Below are positions 2,474-8,765 of a stretch of 8,765 nt of DNA, piece after piece. Every line of letters starts with the position of its first letter. Within the stretch, counting starts at the first letter, position 1. Both the position numbers and the translations under genes were made by a program. The stretch lies in the IMG/VR virus record IMGVR_UViG_2585427739_000005, one strand, 5' to 3'. The notes below the pieces were generated by a model. It searched no databases, was not told the origin of the DNA, and saw nothing but the letters and a program-made list of their open reading frames with translations. The DNA comes from a virus (lineage: Duplodnaviria > Heunggongvirae > Uroviricota > Caudoviricetes).

Positions 2474-3229
2474 ATGATTCACTACCACGGTGGGCCTATT
2501 ACTCCTGATACGTGCGCAATGAGAGCATGGAAAGGGCGACATGCGTTTATCAGTTTTGCGCATTCAGGCCAGATCAATCTCGCGGCTGAATACTGTCAGT
2601 AGTTCGCGCTGGACAACGGTGCATTCACCGCCTGGAAAGCAGCTGGCAAAAACAAAATCGACTGGAGCGATTACTACGAGTTTGTTGCTCGCTGGAAGAA
2701 TCACCCAGGATTCGATTTTGCCATTATCCCGGATGTTATTGATGGCGGAGAGGAGGAAAATGATGCGCTTCTGAATGAGTGGCCTCACGGAAAACTAGCT
2801 GGCGTTCCAGTGTGGCACATGAATGAAAGTGACGAGCGATTTATTCATTTGTGCAATGAGTTTCCGCGAGTGGCTATCGGTAGTTGTGGCGACTATGACG
2901 TAAAGCGCCCAACTCTTGCGGTAGCCAGAATGAAAGACCTGATTCGTCACATTGTTGATGGGCATGGTCAGCCGGTTACGAAACTACATGGATTGCGCAT
3001 GTTAAATCCGCTGATATTCACAAAATTACCCTTAGCCAGCGCAGATAGTACGAACGTCGCTCGAAACATCGGTATTGATAAAGCCTGGTCTGGGGCTTAT
3101 GCACCTGCAAGTAAAGAGACACGCGCAGCATTAATGGTAGAACGGATTGAGGCACACAATAGCCCTGGTTCTCTTGCGTATTGTGAACAACGCGACCGCT
3201 TTGAAATGCAATTGCAACTAGCAGTTTAA
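2474..3229 (+). pseudogene. TGT-like (queuine/7-deazaguanine transglycosylase, DpdA-like) gene interrupted by an in-frame amber codon at 2600-2602
   Basis: Seen: strong AAAGGAGAG Shine-Dalgarno before ATG 2474; one frame runs 2474..3229 with a single TAG after codon 42 (...EYCQ*FALDNG...), preceded by CAG. Inference: AIIPDVID, VAIGSCGD and ASADSTNVARNIG occur in the same order as recalled TGT motifs MIFDEC, YAVGGLAVGE and DCVMPTRNARNG. Family assignment is from memory, not searched. Confidence 0.5.
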
Positions 3230-3239
3230 GGACTAACAA

Positions 3240-3815
3240 ATGACCACTATTACCAAAGAACGTATTGAATTGTTCATTAAAAATCCGCTTGAAAACGGGC
3301 TTACTCGTGACGAACAAATGGAACTGGCACGAATTGCACTGGCATCACTGGGAGCAGAACCTGTAAGCCAAACTTACAACTTGCCAGAATTAATCGAAGG
3401 CATGGAGGTTTCCATTGATGTAAGCACTTGTGATGCGGATTTAGGTAATCGCTATTTCGGTACCGTCACCGAGGCGTTAGAACTTGATACTGCCAAGAAT
3501 GGTTACATCCTCCTGGTTCAGGACGCAGAGCCAAACTTCGATATAAATGGCAATTCTCCGGTAACTCCGGATGGTTGGGTTATAGTGCCGAAGAAACTAA
3601 CCGCTGAGAACGGCGCTAAGGGTGTGCTATCCGGTGAATTTTCAGAAACTACGTTTATAAGCTGCCCGGAATGCTTTGGTGATGATGATTGCGAAACTTG
3701 TGACGGCAGCGGAAGAATCGAAATCAAGGTTCCAGTCAGTTGGACAACTATCAAAACTATTTGGGCTAAAGGGTGTGAGTACTTTTCAATAGTAGCACCG
3801 CAGCAAGATGGGTGA
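3240..3815 (+). CDS. Hypothetical protein (191 aa) with a C-terminal DnaJ-like cysteine motif CPECFGDDDCETCDGSGR
   Basis: AAGGA Shine-Dalgarno 7 nt upstream of ATG 3240. CxxCxGxxxCxxCxGxG resembles the DnaJ cysteine-rich zinc-binding repeat. A KpnI site at 3459-3464 is absent from recalled lambda. Function unknown. Confidence 0.7.
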   Translation: MTTITKERIELFIKNPLENGLTRDEQMELARIALASLGAEPVSQTYNLPELIEGMEVSIDVSTCDADLGNRYFGTVTEALELDTAKNGYILLVQDAEPNFDINGNSPVTPDGWVIVPKKLTAENGAKGVLSGEFSETTFISCPECFGDDDCETCDGSGRIEIKVPVSWTTIKTIWAKGCEYFSIVAPQQDG

Positions 3816-3941: not shown

Positions 3942-4184
3942 ATGTTCAAACGCTGCATCGCCAAGTGTGGAAGCACACCTGACATCCAAGCTTTTATTAA
4001 TGAAGATGGTAAGCTTGTTGTTGAGAGGAGTGGTCCTTTTATTAGCAAACAACTTATCATTACCTCTCCAGCGGAGATGGCCGGGGAATGGATAGTTTCT
4101 GAACCAGAGGAGTTGCACATCCCGCTTCCTTATGGCCCTCAGGGACTGATTTATAACCGTTATGTTCAGAAGGAGGCGGGTTGA
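3942..4184 (+). CDS. Hypothetical small protein (80 aa; MFKRCIAKCGSTPDIQAFINEDGKLVVERSG...)
   Basis: GGGGGGA Shine-Dalgarno 6 nt upstream of ATG 3942. The track ORF 3900..4184 is the same frame from an ATG that lies inside the candidate promoter. HindIII sites at 3988 and 4011 are absent from recalled lambda. Confidence 0.5.
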   Translation: MFKRCIAKCGSTPDIQAFINEDGKLVVERSGPFISKQLIITSPAEMAGEWIVSEPEELHIPLPYGPQGLIYNRYVQKEAG

Positions 4185-4443
4185 CAATGTCAGGCATAAC
4201 ATCGCCGAGAAATCGAAAGAAAAACAGAACAAGGTAAACGTTGACCTTGCAGCATCAGGCATGGAGTACAGAGAGCGCCTTAACATACCTGTTATCACTG
4301 AGCAGGTATCATGAGAGCAACCTGAGCACTCACGCGAGTATTTCATGGAGCGCATCAGATACTATCGCGAGCAGTCGTTAAACATGCCCAAGGGAAGCAA
4401 CCCATGGTATATCGATATGGATGAACAGAACGCCAAGAAGTAA
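4162..4443 (+). pseudogene. 282-bp ORF at the position of lambda ea8.5, interrupted by an in-frame TGA at 4312-4314
   Basis: Seen: ATG 4162 to TAA 4441-4443 is one frame with a single internal TGA. Length and distance from xis match recalled lambda ea8.5 coordinates to within 1 bp. The translation has no Cys, and NcoI (4402) and ClaI (4411) sites not recalled in lambda lie inside it, so identity with ea8.5 is uncertain. Confidence 0.35.
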
Positions 4444-4463
4444 ACGCAATTTGAACGAATGCG

Positions 4464-4489
4464 AACCCGCCGAGTGCGGGTTTTCTTTT
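4464..4489 (+). terminator. Rho-independent terminator (first of a tandem pair)
   Basis: Seen: stem AACCCGC / GCGGGTT (7 bp), loop CGAGT, then TTCTTTT. Confidence 0.6.
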
Positions 4490-4493
4490 ATCT

Positions 4494-4519
4494 GAACTCG
4501 CTACGGCGAGTTTTGTTTT
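4494..4519 (+). terminator. Rho-independent terminator (second of a tandem pair)
   Basis: Seen: stem ACTCGC / GCGAGT (6 bp), loop TACG, then TTTTGTTTT. Confidence 0.55.
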
Positions 4520-4532
4520 ATGGCGATGATAA

Positions 4533-4700
4533 ATGCACTTCCGAGTTACAGGTGAATGGAATGGAGAACCATTCAACAGAGTTATCGAAGCCGAGAACAT
4601 CAGCGACTGCTATAACCACTGGATGCTGTGGGCGCAGATAGCACATGCAGACGTAACCAATATTCGAATTGAAGAACTGAAAGAACACCAAGCCGCCTGA
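4533..4700 (+). CDS. Lambda orf55-like hypothetical protein (55 aa; MHFRVTGEWNGEPFNRVIEAENISDCYNHWMLWAQIAHADVTNIRIEELKEHQAA)
   Basis: Seen: ORF below the track cut-off, ending inside the next terminator. Maps exactly onto my recalled coordinates for the 55-aa hypothetical gene next to xis in lambda. Weak Shine-Dalgarno. Confidence 0.5.
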   Translation: MHFRVTGEWNGEPFNRVIEAENISDCYNHWMLWAQIAHADVTNIRIEELKEHQAA

Positions 4701-4713
4701 TGGCGGTTTTTTC
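4691..4713 (+). terminator. Rho-independent terminator overlapping the orf55-like stop codon
   Basis: Seen: stem AGCCGCC / GGCGGTT, loop TGAT (holds the TGA stop), then TTTTTTCTT. Confidence 0.6.
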
Positions 4714-4739: not shown

Positions 4740-4958
4740 ATGTACTTGACACTTCAGGAGTGGAACGCTCGCCAGCGACGCCCAAGAAGCCTTGAAACAG
4801 TTCGTCGATGGGTGCGCGAATGCAGGATATTCCCTCCTCCGGTTAAGGATGGAAGAGAATATCTGTTCCACGAATCAGCGGTAAAGGTTGACTTAAATCG
4901 ACCAGTAACAGGTAGCCTTTTGAAGAGGATCAGAAATGGGAAGAAGGCGAAGTCATGA
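4740..4958 (+). CDS. xis: Excisionase Xis (72 aa)
   Basis: Translation MYLTLQEWNARQRRPRSLETVRRWVRECRIFPPPVKDGREYLFHESAVKVDLNRPVTGSLLKRIRNGKKAKS matches recalled lambda Xis; 23-bp overlap with int as in lambda. Confidence 0.95.
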   Translation: MYLTLQEWNARQRRPRSLETVRRWVRECRIFPPPVKDGREYLFHESAVKVDLNRPVTGSLLKRIRNGKKAKS

Positions 4959-6006
4959 GCGCCGGGATTTACCCCCTAACCTTTATATAAGAAACAATGG
5001 ATATTACTGCTACAGGGACCCAAGGACGGGTAAAGAGTTTGGATTAGGCCGAGACAGGCGAATCGCAATCACTGAAGCTATACAGGCCAACATTGAGTTA
5101 TTTTCAGGACACAAACACAAGCCTCTGACAGCGAGAATCAACAGTGATAATTCCGTTACGTTACATTCATGGCTTGATCGCTACGAAAAAATCCTGGCCA
5201 GCAGAGGAATCAAGCAGAAGACACTCATAAATTACATGAGCAAAATTAAAGCAATAAGGAGGGGTCTGCCTGATGCTCCACTTGAAGACATCACCACAAA
5301 AGAAATTGCGGCAATGCTCAATGGATACATAGACGAGGGCAAGGCGGCGTCAGCCAAGTTAATCAGATCAACACTGAGCGATGCATTCCGAGAGGCAATA
5401 GCTGAAGGCCATATAACAACAAACCCTGTCGCTGCCACTCGCGCAGCAAAATCAGAGGTAAGGAGATCAAGACTTACGGCTGACGAATACCTGAAAATTT
5501 ATCAAGCAGCAGAATCATCACCATGTTGGCTCAGACTTGCAATGGAACTGGCTGTTGTTACCGGGCAACGAGTTGGTGATTTATGCGAAATGAAGTGGTC
5601 TGATATCGTAGATGGATATCTTTATGTCGAGCAAAGCAAAACAGGCGTAAAAATTGCCATCCCAACAGCATTGCATGTTGATGCTCTCGGAATATCAATG
5701 AAGGAAACACTTGATAAATGCAAAGAGATTCTTGGCGGAGAAACCATAATTGCATCTACTCGTCGCGAACCGCTTTCATCCGGCACAGTATCAAGGTATT
5801 TTATGCGCGCACGAAAAGCATCAGGTCTTTCCTTCGAAGGGGATCCGCCTACCTTTCACGAGTTGCGCAGTTTGTCTGCAAGACTCTATGAGAAGCAGAT
5901 AAGCGATAAGTTTGCTCAACATCTTCTCGGGCATAAGTCGGACACCATGGCATCACAGTATCGTGATGACAGAGGCAGGGAGTGGGACAAAATTGAAATC
6001 AAATAA
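4936..6006 (+). CDS. int: Tyrosine site-specific integrase Int (356 aa), lambda type
   Basis: Full-length match to recalled lambda Int (MGRRRSHERRDLPPNLYIRNNGYYCYRDPRTGKEF...REWDKIEIK) with a few apparent substitutions. Recalled lambda BamHI, NruI and NcoI sites all present at the expected offsets. Confidence 0.97.
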   Translation: MGRRRSHERRDLPPNLYIRNNGYYCYRDPRTGKEFGLGRDRRIAITEAIQANIELFSGHKHKPLTARINSDNSVTLHSWLDRYEKILASRGIKQKTLINYMSKIKAIRRGLPDAPLEDITTKEIAAMLNGYIDEGKAASAKLIRSTLSDAFREAIAEGHITTNPVAATRAAKSEVRRSRLTADEYLKIYQAAESSPCWLRLAMELAVVTGQRVGDLCEMKWSDIVDGYLYVEQSKTGVKIAIPTALHVDALGISMKETLDKCKEILGGETIIASTRREPLSSGTVSRYFMRARKASGLSFEGDPPTFHELRSLSARLYEKQISDKFAQHLLGHKSDTMASQYRDDRGREWDKIEIK

Positions 6007-7439: not shown

Positions 7440-7645
<206 letters not shown>

Positions 7646-7657
7646 ACATGGCGCTTT

Positions 7658-8067
7658 TTACATCTGACGGTTTTTATTGAAGTTAATCAAACTACCCGCC
7701 TTGATAATCTCGCGCTCTTCAGCAGTCAGACTTTCCATATAGAGCGTAATTTCCGTTACCGGCGCATCTTCATGGATCACATAACCTTTAAACGTCGTAC
7801 CCGGATTATCCAGCGCCGCTTTAATGCCAGGGATGTAAATGTAATCCCCCACTTCAAAGGTTGGCACTTCCGCCATCTGCAGCGGTAACATCCCCCAGTT
7901 GATGACGTTAGAACGGTAGCGTTTAGTCGCGTACTCTTCGGAAATATTCGCCAGACCGCCAATCACACGCTGGCAGCTCGCCGCCTGTTCACGCGCAGAA
8001 CCATCGCCTGGTTTCACCGCATATACCATGCTGCCAATTTCAGTTTGCAGCGGATCAATATGCTCCT
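7658..8067 (-). pseudogene. ybhJ: 3' portion of an aconitase-family hydratase gene (YbhJ-like), truncated by IS2 insertion at 8068
   Basis: Translation contains an aconitase C-terminal-domain-like segment ([44 protein letters not shown]). The frame runs straight into the IS2 end; the track ORF's first ~12 codons are IS2 sequence. The gene's 5' part would lie beyond the IS2, outside the window. Confidence 0.7.
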
Positions 8068-8765
8068 TGGATTTGCCCCTATATTTCCAGACATCTGTTA
8101 TCACTTAACCCATTACAAGCCCGCTGCCGCAGATATTCCCGTGGCGAGCGATAACCCAGCGCACTATGCGGATGCCATTCGTTATAATGCTCGAACGCCT
8201 CTGCAAGGTTCTTTGCTGCCGTTAACCCGTCTGGTTTGGGCATGATACTGATGTAGTCACGCTTTATCGTTTTCACGAAGCTCTCTGCTATTCCGTTACT
8301 CTCCGGACTCCGCACCGCCGTGTTCTTCGGTTCAAGTCCCAACATCCGGGCGAACTGGCGTGTTTCATTAGCCCGGTAGCATGAACCATTATCCGTCAGC
8401 CACTCCACTGGAGACGGCGGAAGATCGTTGCCGAAGCGGCGTTCCACCGCTCCCAGCATGACGTCCTGTACTGTTTCACTGTTGAAGCCGCCGGTAGTGA
8501 CCGCCCAGTGCAGTGCCTCACGATCACAGCAGTCCAGCGCGAACGTGACACGCAGTCTCTCTCCGTTATCACAGCAGAACTCGAACCCGTCAGAGCACCA
8601 TCGCTGATTGCTTTCTTTCACGGCCACTCTGCCTGTATGTGCCCGTTTCGATGGCGGTACAGCAGGTTTTCGCTCAAGCAACAGCGCATTCTGGCGCATG
8701 ATCCGGTAAACACGTTTGGCATTGATCGCAGGCATACCATCAAGTTCTGCCTGTCTGCGAAGCAG
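8068..8765 (-). mobile_element. IS2 insertion sequence (IS3 family), right end through most of insD; truncated by the window end
   Basis: Seen: terminal inverted repeat TGGATTTGCCCCTATATTTCCAGACATCTGTTATCACTTAACCC starts at 8068 (recalled IS2 right end); the InsD ORF follows on the minus strand. Confidence 0.9.
8079..8765 (-). CDS. insD: IS2 transposase OrfB/InsD (DDE integrase core), 5' end beyond the window
   Basis: Translation (...[53 protein letters not shown]...[10 protein letters not shown]) matches recalled IS2 InsD; the frame is open to the window edge. Confidence 0.9.

Follow-up and report, generated by a model that had tools for sequence, protein, structure and literature searches.

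The exo-xis region and its accessory proteins have been described previously (PMC8614690, PMC10834534), and the C-terminal domains of one of these proteins, Ea22, are portable, mosaic, and acidic (PMC10834534). Ea22 is pro-lysogenic and occurs in lambda and, as variants V1 to V3, in Stx phages (Ead/Ea22-like; PF13935). A second point of reference is Anti-TRAP of Bacillus subtilis, a small acidic protein-binding module on DnaJ-type CxxCxGxG zinc knuckles. Here, we compare with these systems a 191-aa protein encoded in a window of 8,765 nucleotides (the whole stretch of DNA analyzed; IMG/VR virus record IMGVR_UViG_2585427739_000005). We conclude that its gene is probably an independent accessory gene whose hyper-mosaic product belongs to the Ea22/EaA/HkaE type and works without the transglycosylase encoded next to it.

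The window covers the exo-xis region of a lambdoid prophage that sits at lambda attB, with the gene order bet-exo-orf60a(DUF1317)-orf63(DUF1382)-orf61-orf73(TraR)-ea22 ... xis-int-ybhC. The open reading frame (ORF) of interest (3240-3815, plus strand) runs complete from ATG to TGA, encodes a mosaic early accessory protein, and is placed downstream of ea22 in the variable, int-proximal part of the region. The Ea22-like ORF (2065-2472) matches PF13935 (E = 2.6e-17) and ends in IKGE. Between the two ORFs lies a singleton DpdA/TGT-like gene (2474-3229, plus strand; phrog_887), which was considered here as context only. The Shine-Dalgarno sequence AAGGA (3228-3232, plus strand) overlaps the TAA stop codon of this TGT-like gene (3227-3229) and stands 7 nt before the ATG, which itself is 10 nt past that stop; the first-pass annotation, which had the Shine-Dalgarno sequence beginning 1 bp after the stop, was thus essentially right. 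The junction, TAAGGACTAACAAATG, contains AAGGA and is kept in all sampled E. coli contexts, with TAAGGATTAACAAATG as the version in L006. We found no plus-strand promoter-like or terminator-like sites between 1800 and 4463. Thus, orf73, ea22, the TGT-like gene, and the 191-aa ORF form one pL-type early transcription unit, and the suspected coexpression with the TGT-like gene is real, yet it is not specific to that pair.

Relatives of the protein are encoded in similar places: close to xis/int (ST64B, Serratia OS31), close to an integrase (Citrobacter, Enterobacter, and related prophages), and beside a TraR/DksA gene (Pseudomonas pAN). In genomes related to this one the prophage looks degraded, and two genes neighboring the 191-aa ORF are pseudogenes. 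The slot also hosts morons of the anti-restriction type, namely methyltransferases, the DpdA-like gene, and anti-RecBCD. With its gene between exo and xis, in the pL operon, and with its portable modules, the 191-aa protein fits the exo-xis/ea-region mosaic class.

The protein is a shuffled mosaic of three portable modules, N, M, and C, that are common in lambda-like prophages. All of them are acidic, and the pI of the whole protein is 4.18. The N module (3240-3353, aa 1-38, plus strand; MTTITKERIELFIKNPLENGLTRDEQMELARIALASL) matches phrog_3323 and phrog_660, and its two predicted helices would form a helical hairpin. It also stands at the head of many otherwise different ea-region proteins (DUF550, DUF551, and a 454-aa protein). 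DNA-level and protein-level breakpoints cluster at the first joint, GAEPV (3351-3365, aa 38-42, plus strand); this joint, as LEAEPVSQ, also connects Ea22 coiled coils to M plus C in other proteins. The M module (3354-3545, aa 39-102, plus strand) has a pI of ~4.05 and weakly predicted beta strands; it is common to HK620 HkaE and P22-like "DUF551 proteins" and recurs without the C module. The second joint is the linker NGNSPVTPDGW (3546-3578, aa 103-113, plus strand), which precedes DUF551 domains in other proteins too. It leads into the C module of ~75 aa (3579-3797, aa 114-186, plus strand), a predicted portable zinc knuckle with the pattern LTAENGAK..GEF..CxxC-x5-CxxCxGxGRIE..VPVxW..IK.IW. 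Over the protein as a whole, the mosaic breakpoints fall at aa ~25-38 and ~101-124.

These modules recur independently of one another in thousands of proteins of prophages and temperate phages. Homologues of the 191-aa protein number more than 7,800 word-indexed entries, and 2,031 representative clusters (50% identity) match some part of it at E<1e-3. The C module is present in 87 of the 150 best-scoring of these clusters, which divide into 81 with C only, 63 with M only, and 6 with both. Pfam and similar partners fused to the C module were PF13935 (8 cases), PF04447 (7), PF04448 (3), DUF3850 (1), and ASCH (1); the domains joined to it outside the 191-aa protein are thus of the Ea22 (N-domain or coiled coil), dATP/dGTP pyrophosphohydrolase, DUF551, and ASCH types. 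Database proteins composed of Ea22-N plus M plus C also exist, including P0080 and P0089, where the fusion lies at the LEAEPV joint. DUF551 itself (PF04448) has no Pfam match in the 191-aa protein, which has only the N module, the M module, and the SPVTPDGW linker in common with DUF551 proteins. Scans with the full protein and its 137-aa C-terminal part gave nothing significant in Pfam, NCBIfam, or PADLOC, and neither Pfam nor NCBIfam has a model for the C module. The protein does match phrog_60, of unknown function (E = 1.3e-41), with residues 1-190 aligned to positions 116-322 of the 461 in the profile.

Such extreme mosaicism might suggest that the ORF is a functionless by-product of recombination, a chimera retained merely for lying between useful genes. 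The fragments called by PGAP, the degraded prophage of the relatives, and the two neighboring pseudogenes fit this explanation as well. However, about 40 E. coli genomes and many IMG/VR loci have the frame uninterrupted, and purifying selection acts on the C module, with a median pN/pS of 0.175 among 41 distinct diverged copies at a pS of about 0.5. Across 88 sequences 26 columns are invariant, all four cysteines included, and the cysteines are invariant in all 87 diverse carriers. Moreover, the module is kept at 35-47% identity in elements of Pseudomonas, Serratia, Vibrio, Marinobacter, and Flavobacteriales. A scan of GTDB representative genomes returned only 11 loci; it required exact peptide patterns, so taxonomic breadth is undersampled there. 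We therefore regard a by-product without function as highly improbable. A chance ORF was ruled out by the purifying selection and strong conservation, and the first-pass observation of an ORF with a cysteine cluster stands confirmed. A 78-aa ORF on the minus strand (3518-3754) is taken to be a shadow of the selected plus-strand frame.

The cysteine cluster, CPECFGDDDCETCDGSGR (3663-3716, residues 142-159, plus strand), comprises C142, C145, C151, and C154, which are predicted to form one C4 zinc center of the DnaJ type. It contains two CxxC pairs, one of them a full CxxCxGxG. The best profile match in the PDB was the DnaJ Cys-rich domain 1EXK, a weak match (E = 0.006) over about 23 residues, and hhalign gave a 74% probability over 28 columns. 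The strands before and after the motif had a weak collinear similarity to those around the zinc fingers of DnaJ and DNAJA3 (p of about 0.01 to 0.04). Together with the invariant cysteines, these matches support, at the level of sequence, the earlier suggestion of a zinc-binding DnaJ-like cluster. The likeness is marginal and largely one of motif, spanning about 28-45 residues. In Sb31 of ST64B the first cysteine is lost, which suggests that zinc binding may not be essential for every member.

Lambda replication relies on DnaK/DnaJ. It is conceivable, then, that the protein acts as a DnaJ-type cochaperone or a chaperone mimic and recruits or blocks host DnaK/DnaJ through a zinc finger derived from DnaJ, and the 1EXK and hhalign matches and the similar flanking strands point in that direction. 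The rest of the protein argues otherwise. Neither the J domain (PF00226) with its HPD motif nor any other DnaJ model was matched in Pfam at E<=1, and direct reading of the sequence shows zero histidines. The Pfam scan also gave no match to PF00684, with its four CxxCxGxG repeats and two zinc centers, or to the client-binding beta-sandwich PF01556; the protein stops 37 residues past the last cysteine of the motif. With no G/F region, no C-terminal client-binding domains, one zinc center instead of two, and a similarity of marginal significance over so short a stretch, this role is very unlikely. True DnaJ identity was rejected on account of the missing J domain and the single zinc center. NCBI sources nevertheless name the protein "molecular chaperone DnaJ," which is a misnaming by over-annotation; PGAP/RefSeq either fragments the gene or applies this name.

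Structure prediction gave models of low confidence. AlphaFold2 on the full-length protein (88 sequences) reached a mean pLDDT of 52, with about 55-66 in the C module, and on residues 39-153 (150 sequences) it reached 41, which left the M module without a usable model. Foldseek with the low-confidence full-length model found no match in the PDB at E<=0.001 (the best was 1.7), and a single-sequence phmmer search of the PDB returned noise only. The Anti-TRAP model (PF15777) gave an insignificant match of 10.4 bits, where the cutoff is 32 (E = 0.68). A nucleic-acid-binding zinc ribbon or transcription factor was rejected on the pI of 4.2-4.4.

The position of the gene raises the question of its relationship to the TGT-like gene. 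The first-pass annotation had proposed that the protein could be a partner of the transglycosylase or a specificity factor for it. In such a model, the protein would be cotranslated with the TGT/DpdA-like DNA transglycosylase and act jointly with it in 7-deazaguanine DNA modification. The spacing of the two genes, with the Shine-Dalgarno sequence overlapping the stop, is consistent with this, as are the conserved junction and the adjacency, which was seen in 30 E. coli genomes and, among the near-identical viral loci, at 12 of 19. However, the TGT-like gene carries an amber codon here while the 191-aa ORF is intact: codon 2600-2602 is TAG in this window, whereas each of the 200 complete E. coli genomes with that stretch of the gene reads TCG. 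Either the TGT-like gene here is a pseudogene, or the TAG base is a sequencing error. The amber codon had been missed in the first reading.

Comparison of loci also speaks against a partnership. Of the 201 E. coli genomes that carry the TGT-like gene, 30 encode the 191-aa protein beside it and 171 do not; in the latter, the gene that follows has at most the N module in common and its C terminus is swapped. In all six other E. coli contexts sampled, the downstream gene has only the first ~38 aa in common, or a variant of them, and after this shared start all six carry DUF550, DUF551, or other domains; the downstream gene in L006 retains just MTTITKER and the ARIALASLEAE joint. On viral contigs, the downstream gene encodes a C-module protein at 11 of 78 TGT-like loci. 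Conversely, a TGT-like gene stands at 13 of 80 C-module loci, a sample biased to top matches, and these comprise 12 of the 19 near-identical copies but just a single one of the 61 that are diverged. Four TGT-like genes with identities of 93%, 70%, 68%, and 61% (diverged copies from Salmonella SI8, Klebsiella, SfI, and Vibrio phages) are followed by unrelated genes, with no module downstream in any of the four. We found no TGT-like gene near the C module in four phage contexts (three distant ones and ST64B) or within 5 kb in nine species-representative genomes with a C-module relative. Linkage between the C module and the TGT/DpdA-like gene is limited to a single recent lineage.

In addition, when dpdA of phage 9g was expressed alone in E. 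coli, dPreQ0 was found in plasmid DNA; a partner encoded by the phage is therefore not required for DpdA (PMC6884629). Given the nonsense allele, the 30/201 adjacency, and the single diverged locus, we did not find support for a partner or specificity factor, and we consider this explanation very unlikely. The earlier annotation had itself set two outcomes against its proposal, a lack of co-occurrence with TGT-like genes and a confident match to a characterized family unrelated to DNA modification; the first is what we observed, and the second is not. A tempting but wrong link to phage 7-deazaguanine DNA modification is thereby removed, and the candidacy of the protein as a cofactor does not hold up.

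A stand-alone role in counter-defence was also suggested earlier. The protein would then be an acidic early inhibitor of a host nuclease or immune sensor, maybe a DNA mimic, on a zinc-knuckle scaffold. Its low pI, its place in the early pL operon, and a slot shared with anti-restriction-type morons are in keeping with this, and so are the very high rate of module shuffling, which is typical of arms-race genes, and the fusion of the C module to dNTP pyrophosphohydrolases in other phages. Against it, no known family was matched, and full-text literature searches on four motif strings (LTAENGAK, CETCDGSG, ECFGDD, and TCDGSGRIE) brought up no paper. Likewise, literature searches on DnaJ-like zinc fingers with phage and anti-defence, or on DpdA with lambdoid, yielded nothing relevant to the 191-aa protein. 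The only PADLOC match, PDC-M01B, covered the 25-residue Cys motif and was not significant (E = 0.015, 12.6 bits); this says little on anti-defence, because PADLOC-DB consists of models of defence systems and not of anti-defence proteins. Furthermore, among Enterobacterales the C module is highly conserved (60-90% identity), as would be more typical for a conserved target than for diversification in an arms race. On balance we consider a stand-alone counter-defence protein possible but unlikely.

We favor the independent Ea22/EaA/HkaE-type accessory protein, and it could work as follows. Its three portable modules meet at the conserved recombination joints GAEPV and SPVTPDGW. The four cysteines would hold one zinc ion in a DnaJ-type knuckle (CxxC...CxxCxGxG), and this knuckle would be a protein-binding rather than a nucleic-acid-binding head, since the module, like the protein as a whole, is acidic (pI of about 4.2-4.4). 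Acidity speaks against DNA binding without naming a target. Early in infection or induction, the head would bind to a protein of the host or of the phage. The N-terminal helical hairpin could provide self-association or a common scaffold, as the tetrameric N terminus and coiled coil of Ea22 suggest by analogy. The most likely output would be a modulated host physiology or lysis-lysogeny decision, as for Ea22, or counter-defence; the lysis-lysogeny link would be by analogy, drawn solely through Ea22, whose studied C-terminal domains differ.

A more specific reading of the C module is that it is a portable "targeting head," taken from the DnaJ zinc-finger region minus zinc center II, which temperate phages of gammaproteobacteria graft onto many effectors (Ea22 coiled coils, dNTP pyrophosphohydrolases, ASCH, DUF551) and thereby direct to one conserved host complex, e.g., the DnaK/DnaJ machinery or a client. 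We think this doubtful; were it true, the 191-aa protein would be the minimal carrier of that head. Whatever its target, the C-terminal module, a predicted zinc module, is abundant, strongly conserved, under selection, and unmodeled in Pfam and NCBIfam, which gives it a modest value. Thousands of prophage genes would become easier to annotate once the module is defined as a portable domain and its binding partner is found. The exo-xis region affects the induction of Stx prophages, and the module could inform how exo-xis proteins tune lysis-lysogeny or the takeover of the host.

How the protein compares with known systems depends on the part considered. With the Cys-rich region of DnaJ/Hsp40 (E. 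coli 1EXK and human DNAJA3 2CTT) it has the motif CxxC...CxxCxGxG(R)(I/V)E in common; unlike DnaJ, which has two zinc centers, it has a single one, and it lacks the J domain, the G/F region, and the client-binding C-terminal domains. Anti-TRAP offers an analogy for a zinc knuckle as a protein-binding head, a lead rather than a test, and the context and flanking sequence of the 191-aa protein differ from those of Anti-TRAP. Ea22 has its genomic region and operon in common with the 191-aa protein, and it follows the same design logic, in which an N-terminal helical or oligomerizing part is combined with portable, mosaic, acidic C-terminal domains (PMC10834534, PMC7093339). In contrast to Ea22, the 191-aa protein had no PF13935 match in the Pfam scan, and it ends in ...APQQDG, missing the C-terminal K/R-G-E tripeptide (PMC7093339). 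Nor is the zinc module related to the Ea22 C-terminal domains that were studied experimentally (the lambda CTD and DUF551 of V2). The uncharacterized HkaE/P22-like EaA/DUF551 group (PHROG 60) mostly carries DUF551 or DUF550 in place of the zinc module. Its members have in common with the 191-aa protein either the SPVTPDGW linker together with the N and M modules (as much as 96% identical, in HkaE of HK620) or the C module (Sb31 of ST64B, "EaA," and the "Ea22" of PhiR47_1).

A lambdoid prophage has integrated at the lambda attachment site, and the 8.8-kb window shows its int-proximal end. This stretch encodes the Bet C-terminus (17-436), Exo (433-1113), orf60a/DUF1317 (1104-1292), orf63/DUF1382 (1265-1456), an orf61-like ORF, orf73 with a TraR/DksA zinc finger (1847-2068), an Ea22-like gene (2065-2472; PF13935, E=2.6e-17), the TGT-like gene (2474-3229; phrog_887 'queuine tRNA-ribosyltransferase', E=1.7e-84), the 191-aa ORF (3240-3815), a small hypothetical ORF, a DNA polymerase III theta (HolE/Hot-like) pseudogene (4162-4443; PF06440, E=3.4e-15), Xis (4740-4958) and a lambda-type Int (4936-6006). 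The theta pseudogene has an internal stop at 4312-4314, which RefSeq also flags as 'internal stop' in two near-identical prophages (L001 and L002). The first-pass annotation proposed that the TGT-like gene and the 191-aa ORF are co-expressed. Co-transcription is real but generic, as we found no promoter-like or terminator-like site on the + strand between 1800 and 4463. Going downstream from 1800, the earliest terminator-like sites on the + strand are three hairpins with T tracts, at 4463-4513 and 4690-4709, between the theta pseudogene and xis. Past int the DNA is chromosomal and carries a gene for a pectinesterase-like protein, a REP-like array, an aconitase-C-like ORF and an IS transposase. 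The array, which we take to be REP/BIME-like, consists of 2.1 copies of a 93-nt unit (91% match) at 7440-7635, downstream of the pectinesterase-like gene, and gives rise to mirrored spurious ORFs on both strands. The transposase ORF, which has an rve integrase core (E about 1e-18), adjoins the aconitase-C-terminal-domain ORF and overlaps its start (7658-8104 and 8079-8735, - strand), suggesting IS insertion into or beside that chromosomal gene.

The 191-aa gene is real. The first-pass observation of it is correct: its ORF runs from the ATG at 3240 to the TGA at 3813-3815. We place its cysteine motif CPECFGDDDCETCDGSGR at residues 142-159 (nt 3663-3716) and its Shine-Dalgarno sequence, AAGGA (3228-3232), across the TGT-like TAA stop (3227-3229), 7 nt before the ATG. 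The protein has more than 7,800 word-indexed homologues, and searching exhaustively with HMMER matches it to 2,031 representative clusters at E<1e-3. The match coordinates, from both BLAST and HMMER, cluster at two joints, GAEPV (aa 38-42) and the linker NGNSPVTPDGW (aa 103-113). These joints separate an N module (aa 1-38; two predicted helices, pLDDT 65-80), an acidic M module (aa 39-102; pI about 4.05) and a C module (aa 114-186) with the signature P.G[WY]V..P..LTAENGAK..L.GEF...C..C...C..C.G.G...V.W..IK.I[WY].

We found that these modules occur in many other combinations. By a strict criterion, 81 of the best 150 of the 2,031 representatives have C only, 63 have M only and 6 have both. HK620 HkaE and P22-like 'DUF551 proteins' carry N and M, at up to 96% identity, with a DUF551 domain in place of C. 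The C module forms the C-terminus of proteins 109 to 442 aa long, where its fusion partners are Ead/Ea22 domains (8), dATP/dGTP pyrophosphohydrolase (7), DUF551 (3), DUF3850 (1) and ASCH (1). In two database proteins (P0080 and P0089), an Ea22 N-domain and coiled coil are joined at '...AELEAEPVSQ' to exactly the M and C modules of the 191-aa protein. Copies of the C module in phages of Salmonella (ST64B Sb31, 'EaA'), Klebsiella and Enterobacter share 75-80% identity, and those in Pseudomonas, Serratia and Vibrio phages, as well as in Marinobacter and Flavobacteriales MAGs, share 35-47%. Among the members seen, only Sb31 (L012 2404-3237), in which the first cysteine of the C module is Phe (SFPEC), lacks a complete C4 set. 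Two distant relatives, in a Flavobacteriales MAG (L184 5010-5168) and a Marinobacter MAG (L185 5001-5171), are 35-38% identical (E=1e-8 and 5e-6); the C module may therefore range well beyond Enterobacterales. An integrase lies 2.3 kb downstream in the Marinobacter locus. Because of this module mosaicism, RefSeq PGAP splits the intact ORF (L001 4841-5416; L002 2341-2478) into a 46-codon 'partial' pseudogene and a 137-aa product that begins at the internal Met55 and is named 'molecular chaperone DnaJ', and in other genomes leaves its 3' two-thirds unannotated. Both the split and the omission are annotation artefacts.

That such a protein is a functionless chimera is very improbable. Across 88 aligned sequences 26 columns are invariant, including C142, C145, C151 and C154; C179 is not conserved in this alignment. 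The median pN/pS of the C module is 0.175, with pS about 0.5, over 41 distinct diverged copies. In the window genome, the ORF is intact and the frame of the TGT-like gene is broken. This amber break was overlooked in the first-pass annotation: codon 2600-2602 is TAG in the window and TCG (Ser) in all 200 E. coli complete genomes matching that stretch. Either the TGT-like gene is a pseudogene here, its TAG a private nonsense allele, or the TAG comes from an error in sequencing. The product of the TGT-like gene is a genuine distant DpdA relative, 24-37% identical to Salmonella phage 7-11, Pantoea Vid5 and Pseudomonas 'DpdA' entries, and fits a group described in PMC6884629, the 'singleton DpdA of gamma-proteobacterial phages'. 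Apart from this codon, 190 of 204 matching E. coli genomes have the gene at 99% identity or more despite differing flanks, a pattern suggestive of recent horizontal transfer as a cassette.

The same annotation raised the possibility that the 191-aa protein is a partner of the transglycosylase, which the distribution of the two genes makes extremely unlikely. Among 5,426 complete E. coli genomes, the TGT-like gene is present in 201, the full-length 191-aa gene in 40 and fragments of it in 1,556; the two genes are adjacent in 30. The junction after the TGT-like stop is TAAGGACTAACAAATG (TAAGGATTAACAAATG in L006) in every sampled E. coli context (window 3226-3242; about 3253-3269 in L003-L008), and in all six other TGT-like contexts the downstream gene starts there. 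Five of these six genes share the first ~38 aa near-exactly, and of this part the sixth, in L006, has kept no more than its first eight residues (MTTITKER) and the ARIALASLEAE joint. Past this N-terminal part all six continue with DUF550/MazG-like, DUF551 or other sequences of 207-454 aa, so it is the N-terminal joint that travels with the TGT-like gene. The N module itself is far commoner than that gene. The junction, the shared first ~38 codons and the upstream Ea22 '...IRIKGE' end look like homology arms moving the TGT-like cassette.

Among the IMG/VR loci, the downstream gene encodes a C-module protein at 11 of 78 usable TGT-like loci, and a TGT-like gene lies within 4 kb at 13 of 80 C-module loci: 12 of the 19 with at least 99% identity to the 191-aa protein's C module and 1 of the 61 diverged ones. 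No N, M or C module lies downstream of the diverged TGT-like genes of Salmonella SI8 (93% identity), a Klebsiella phage (70%), SfI (68%) and Vibrio D453 (61%), and no TGT-like gene is near the C module in nine species-representative genomes or four phage contexts (three distant ones and ST64B). The genes upstream of C-module genes are very diverse, including HNH, methyltransferases, PAPS-reductase-like, DGQHR/ParB-like, Ea22-like and many small ORFs. Together, these counts and neighbours argue that the linkage reflects recent lineage-specific synteny through recombination at conserved joints rather than functional partnership. To the extent that comparative genomics allows, the DNA-modification-cofactor hypothesis is refuted. 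We show that the 191-aa protein is independent of the TGT-like gene. It is an early-operon protein, abundant and under selection, built of modules that many ea/exo-xis proteins exchange.

By eye, from sequence motifs, we named the ORFs directly upstream of C-module genes in five viral contigs (L129, L131, L132, L142 and L145) as PAPS-reductase-like, DNA methyltransferases of two kinds, an HNH endonuclease and DGQHR/ParB-like. The slot upstream of C-module genes seems to collect DNA-modification or anti-restriction morons, which may be the region's general character. With such neighbours, a dedicated anti-defence role for the 191-aa protein, also raised at first pass, is conceivable, although we consider it unlikely.

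The four invariant cysteines would hold one zinc in a DnaJ-type knuckle. All modules are acidic (pI 4.05-5.1; whole protein 4.18), which makes a protein, not nucleic acid, the most likely ligand of the knuckle. Like the N-terminus and coiled coil of Ea22 (PMC10834534), the N hairpin may self-associate. The protein probably acts by modulating host physiology or the lysis-lysogeny decision, as demonstrated for Ea22 (PMC7093339), or in counter-defence.

The DnaJ-like cysteine cluster noted at first pass holds up as a DnaJ-type predicted zinc motif, to which no model in Pfam, NCBIfam or PADLOC gives a match in this protein. Against the PDB, the best match of the C-module profile is weak, to the E. 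coli DnaJ Cys-rich domain (1EXK; E=0.006, 19.7 bits), followed by DNAJA3 (2CTT; E=3.2). hhalign aligns the C module with the DnaJ region at 74% probability over 28 columns (CxxC...CxxCxGxGR[IV]E). Similarity to the matching DnaJ and DNAJA3 strands extends to the 26 residues before the first cysteine and to the strand that follows the motif (p about 0.01-0.04 in shuffling tests), a collinear likeness that is suggestive, not proof. Neither AlphaFold run gave a confident fold (pLDDT 52 and 41), and Foldseek with the better model returned only noise. The predicted C-terminal zinc domain is a widespread uncharacterised domain, described by no curated domain library, that merits a Pfam entry.

The likeness to DnaJ lies largely in this predicted zinc motif. 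The protein has no J domain, G/F region, client-binding domains or HPD motif, contains no histidine at all, and has one predicted zinc centre where DnaJ has two. Lacking every defining J-protein feature, the protein is not a DnaJ chaperone, and 'molecular chaperone DnaJ', its name in NCBI, is an over-annotation. That it mimics DnaJ to act on the DnaK system is improbable too. We classify it, a member of PHROG 60, a family without known function, among the hyper-mosaic lambdoid early accessory proteins. Although it lacks the PF13935 domain and K/RGE terminus of the Ea22 family, that family of mosaic, acidic, portable-domain exo-xis proteins is the closest to it in working principle.
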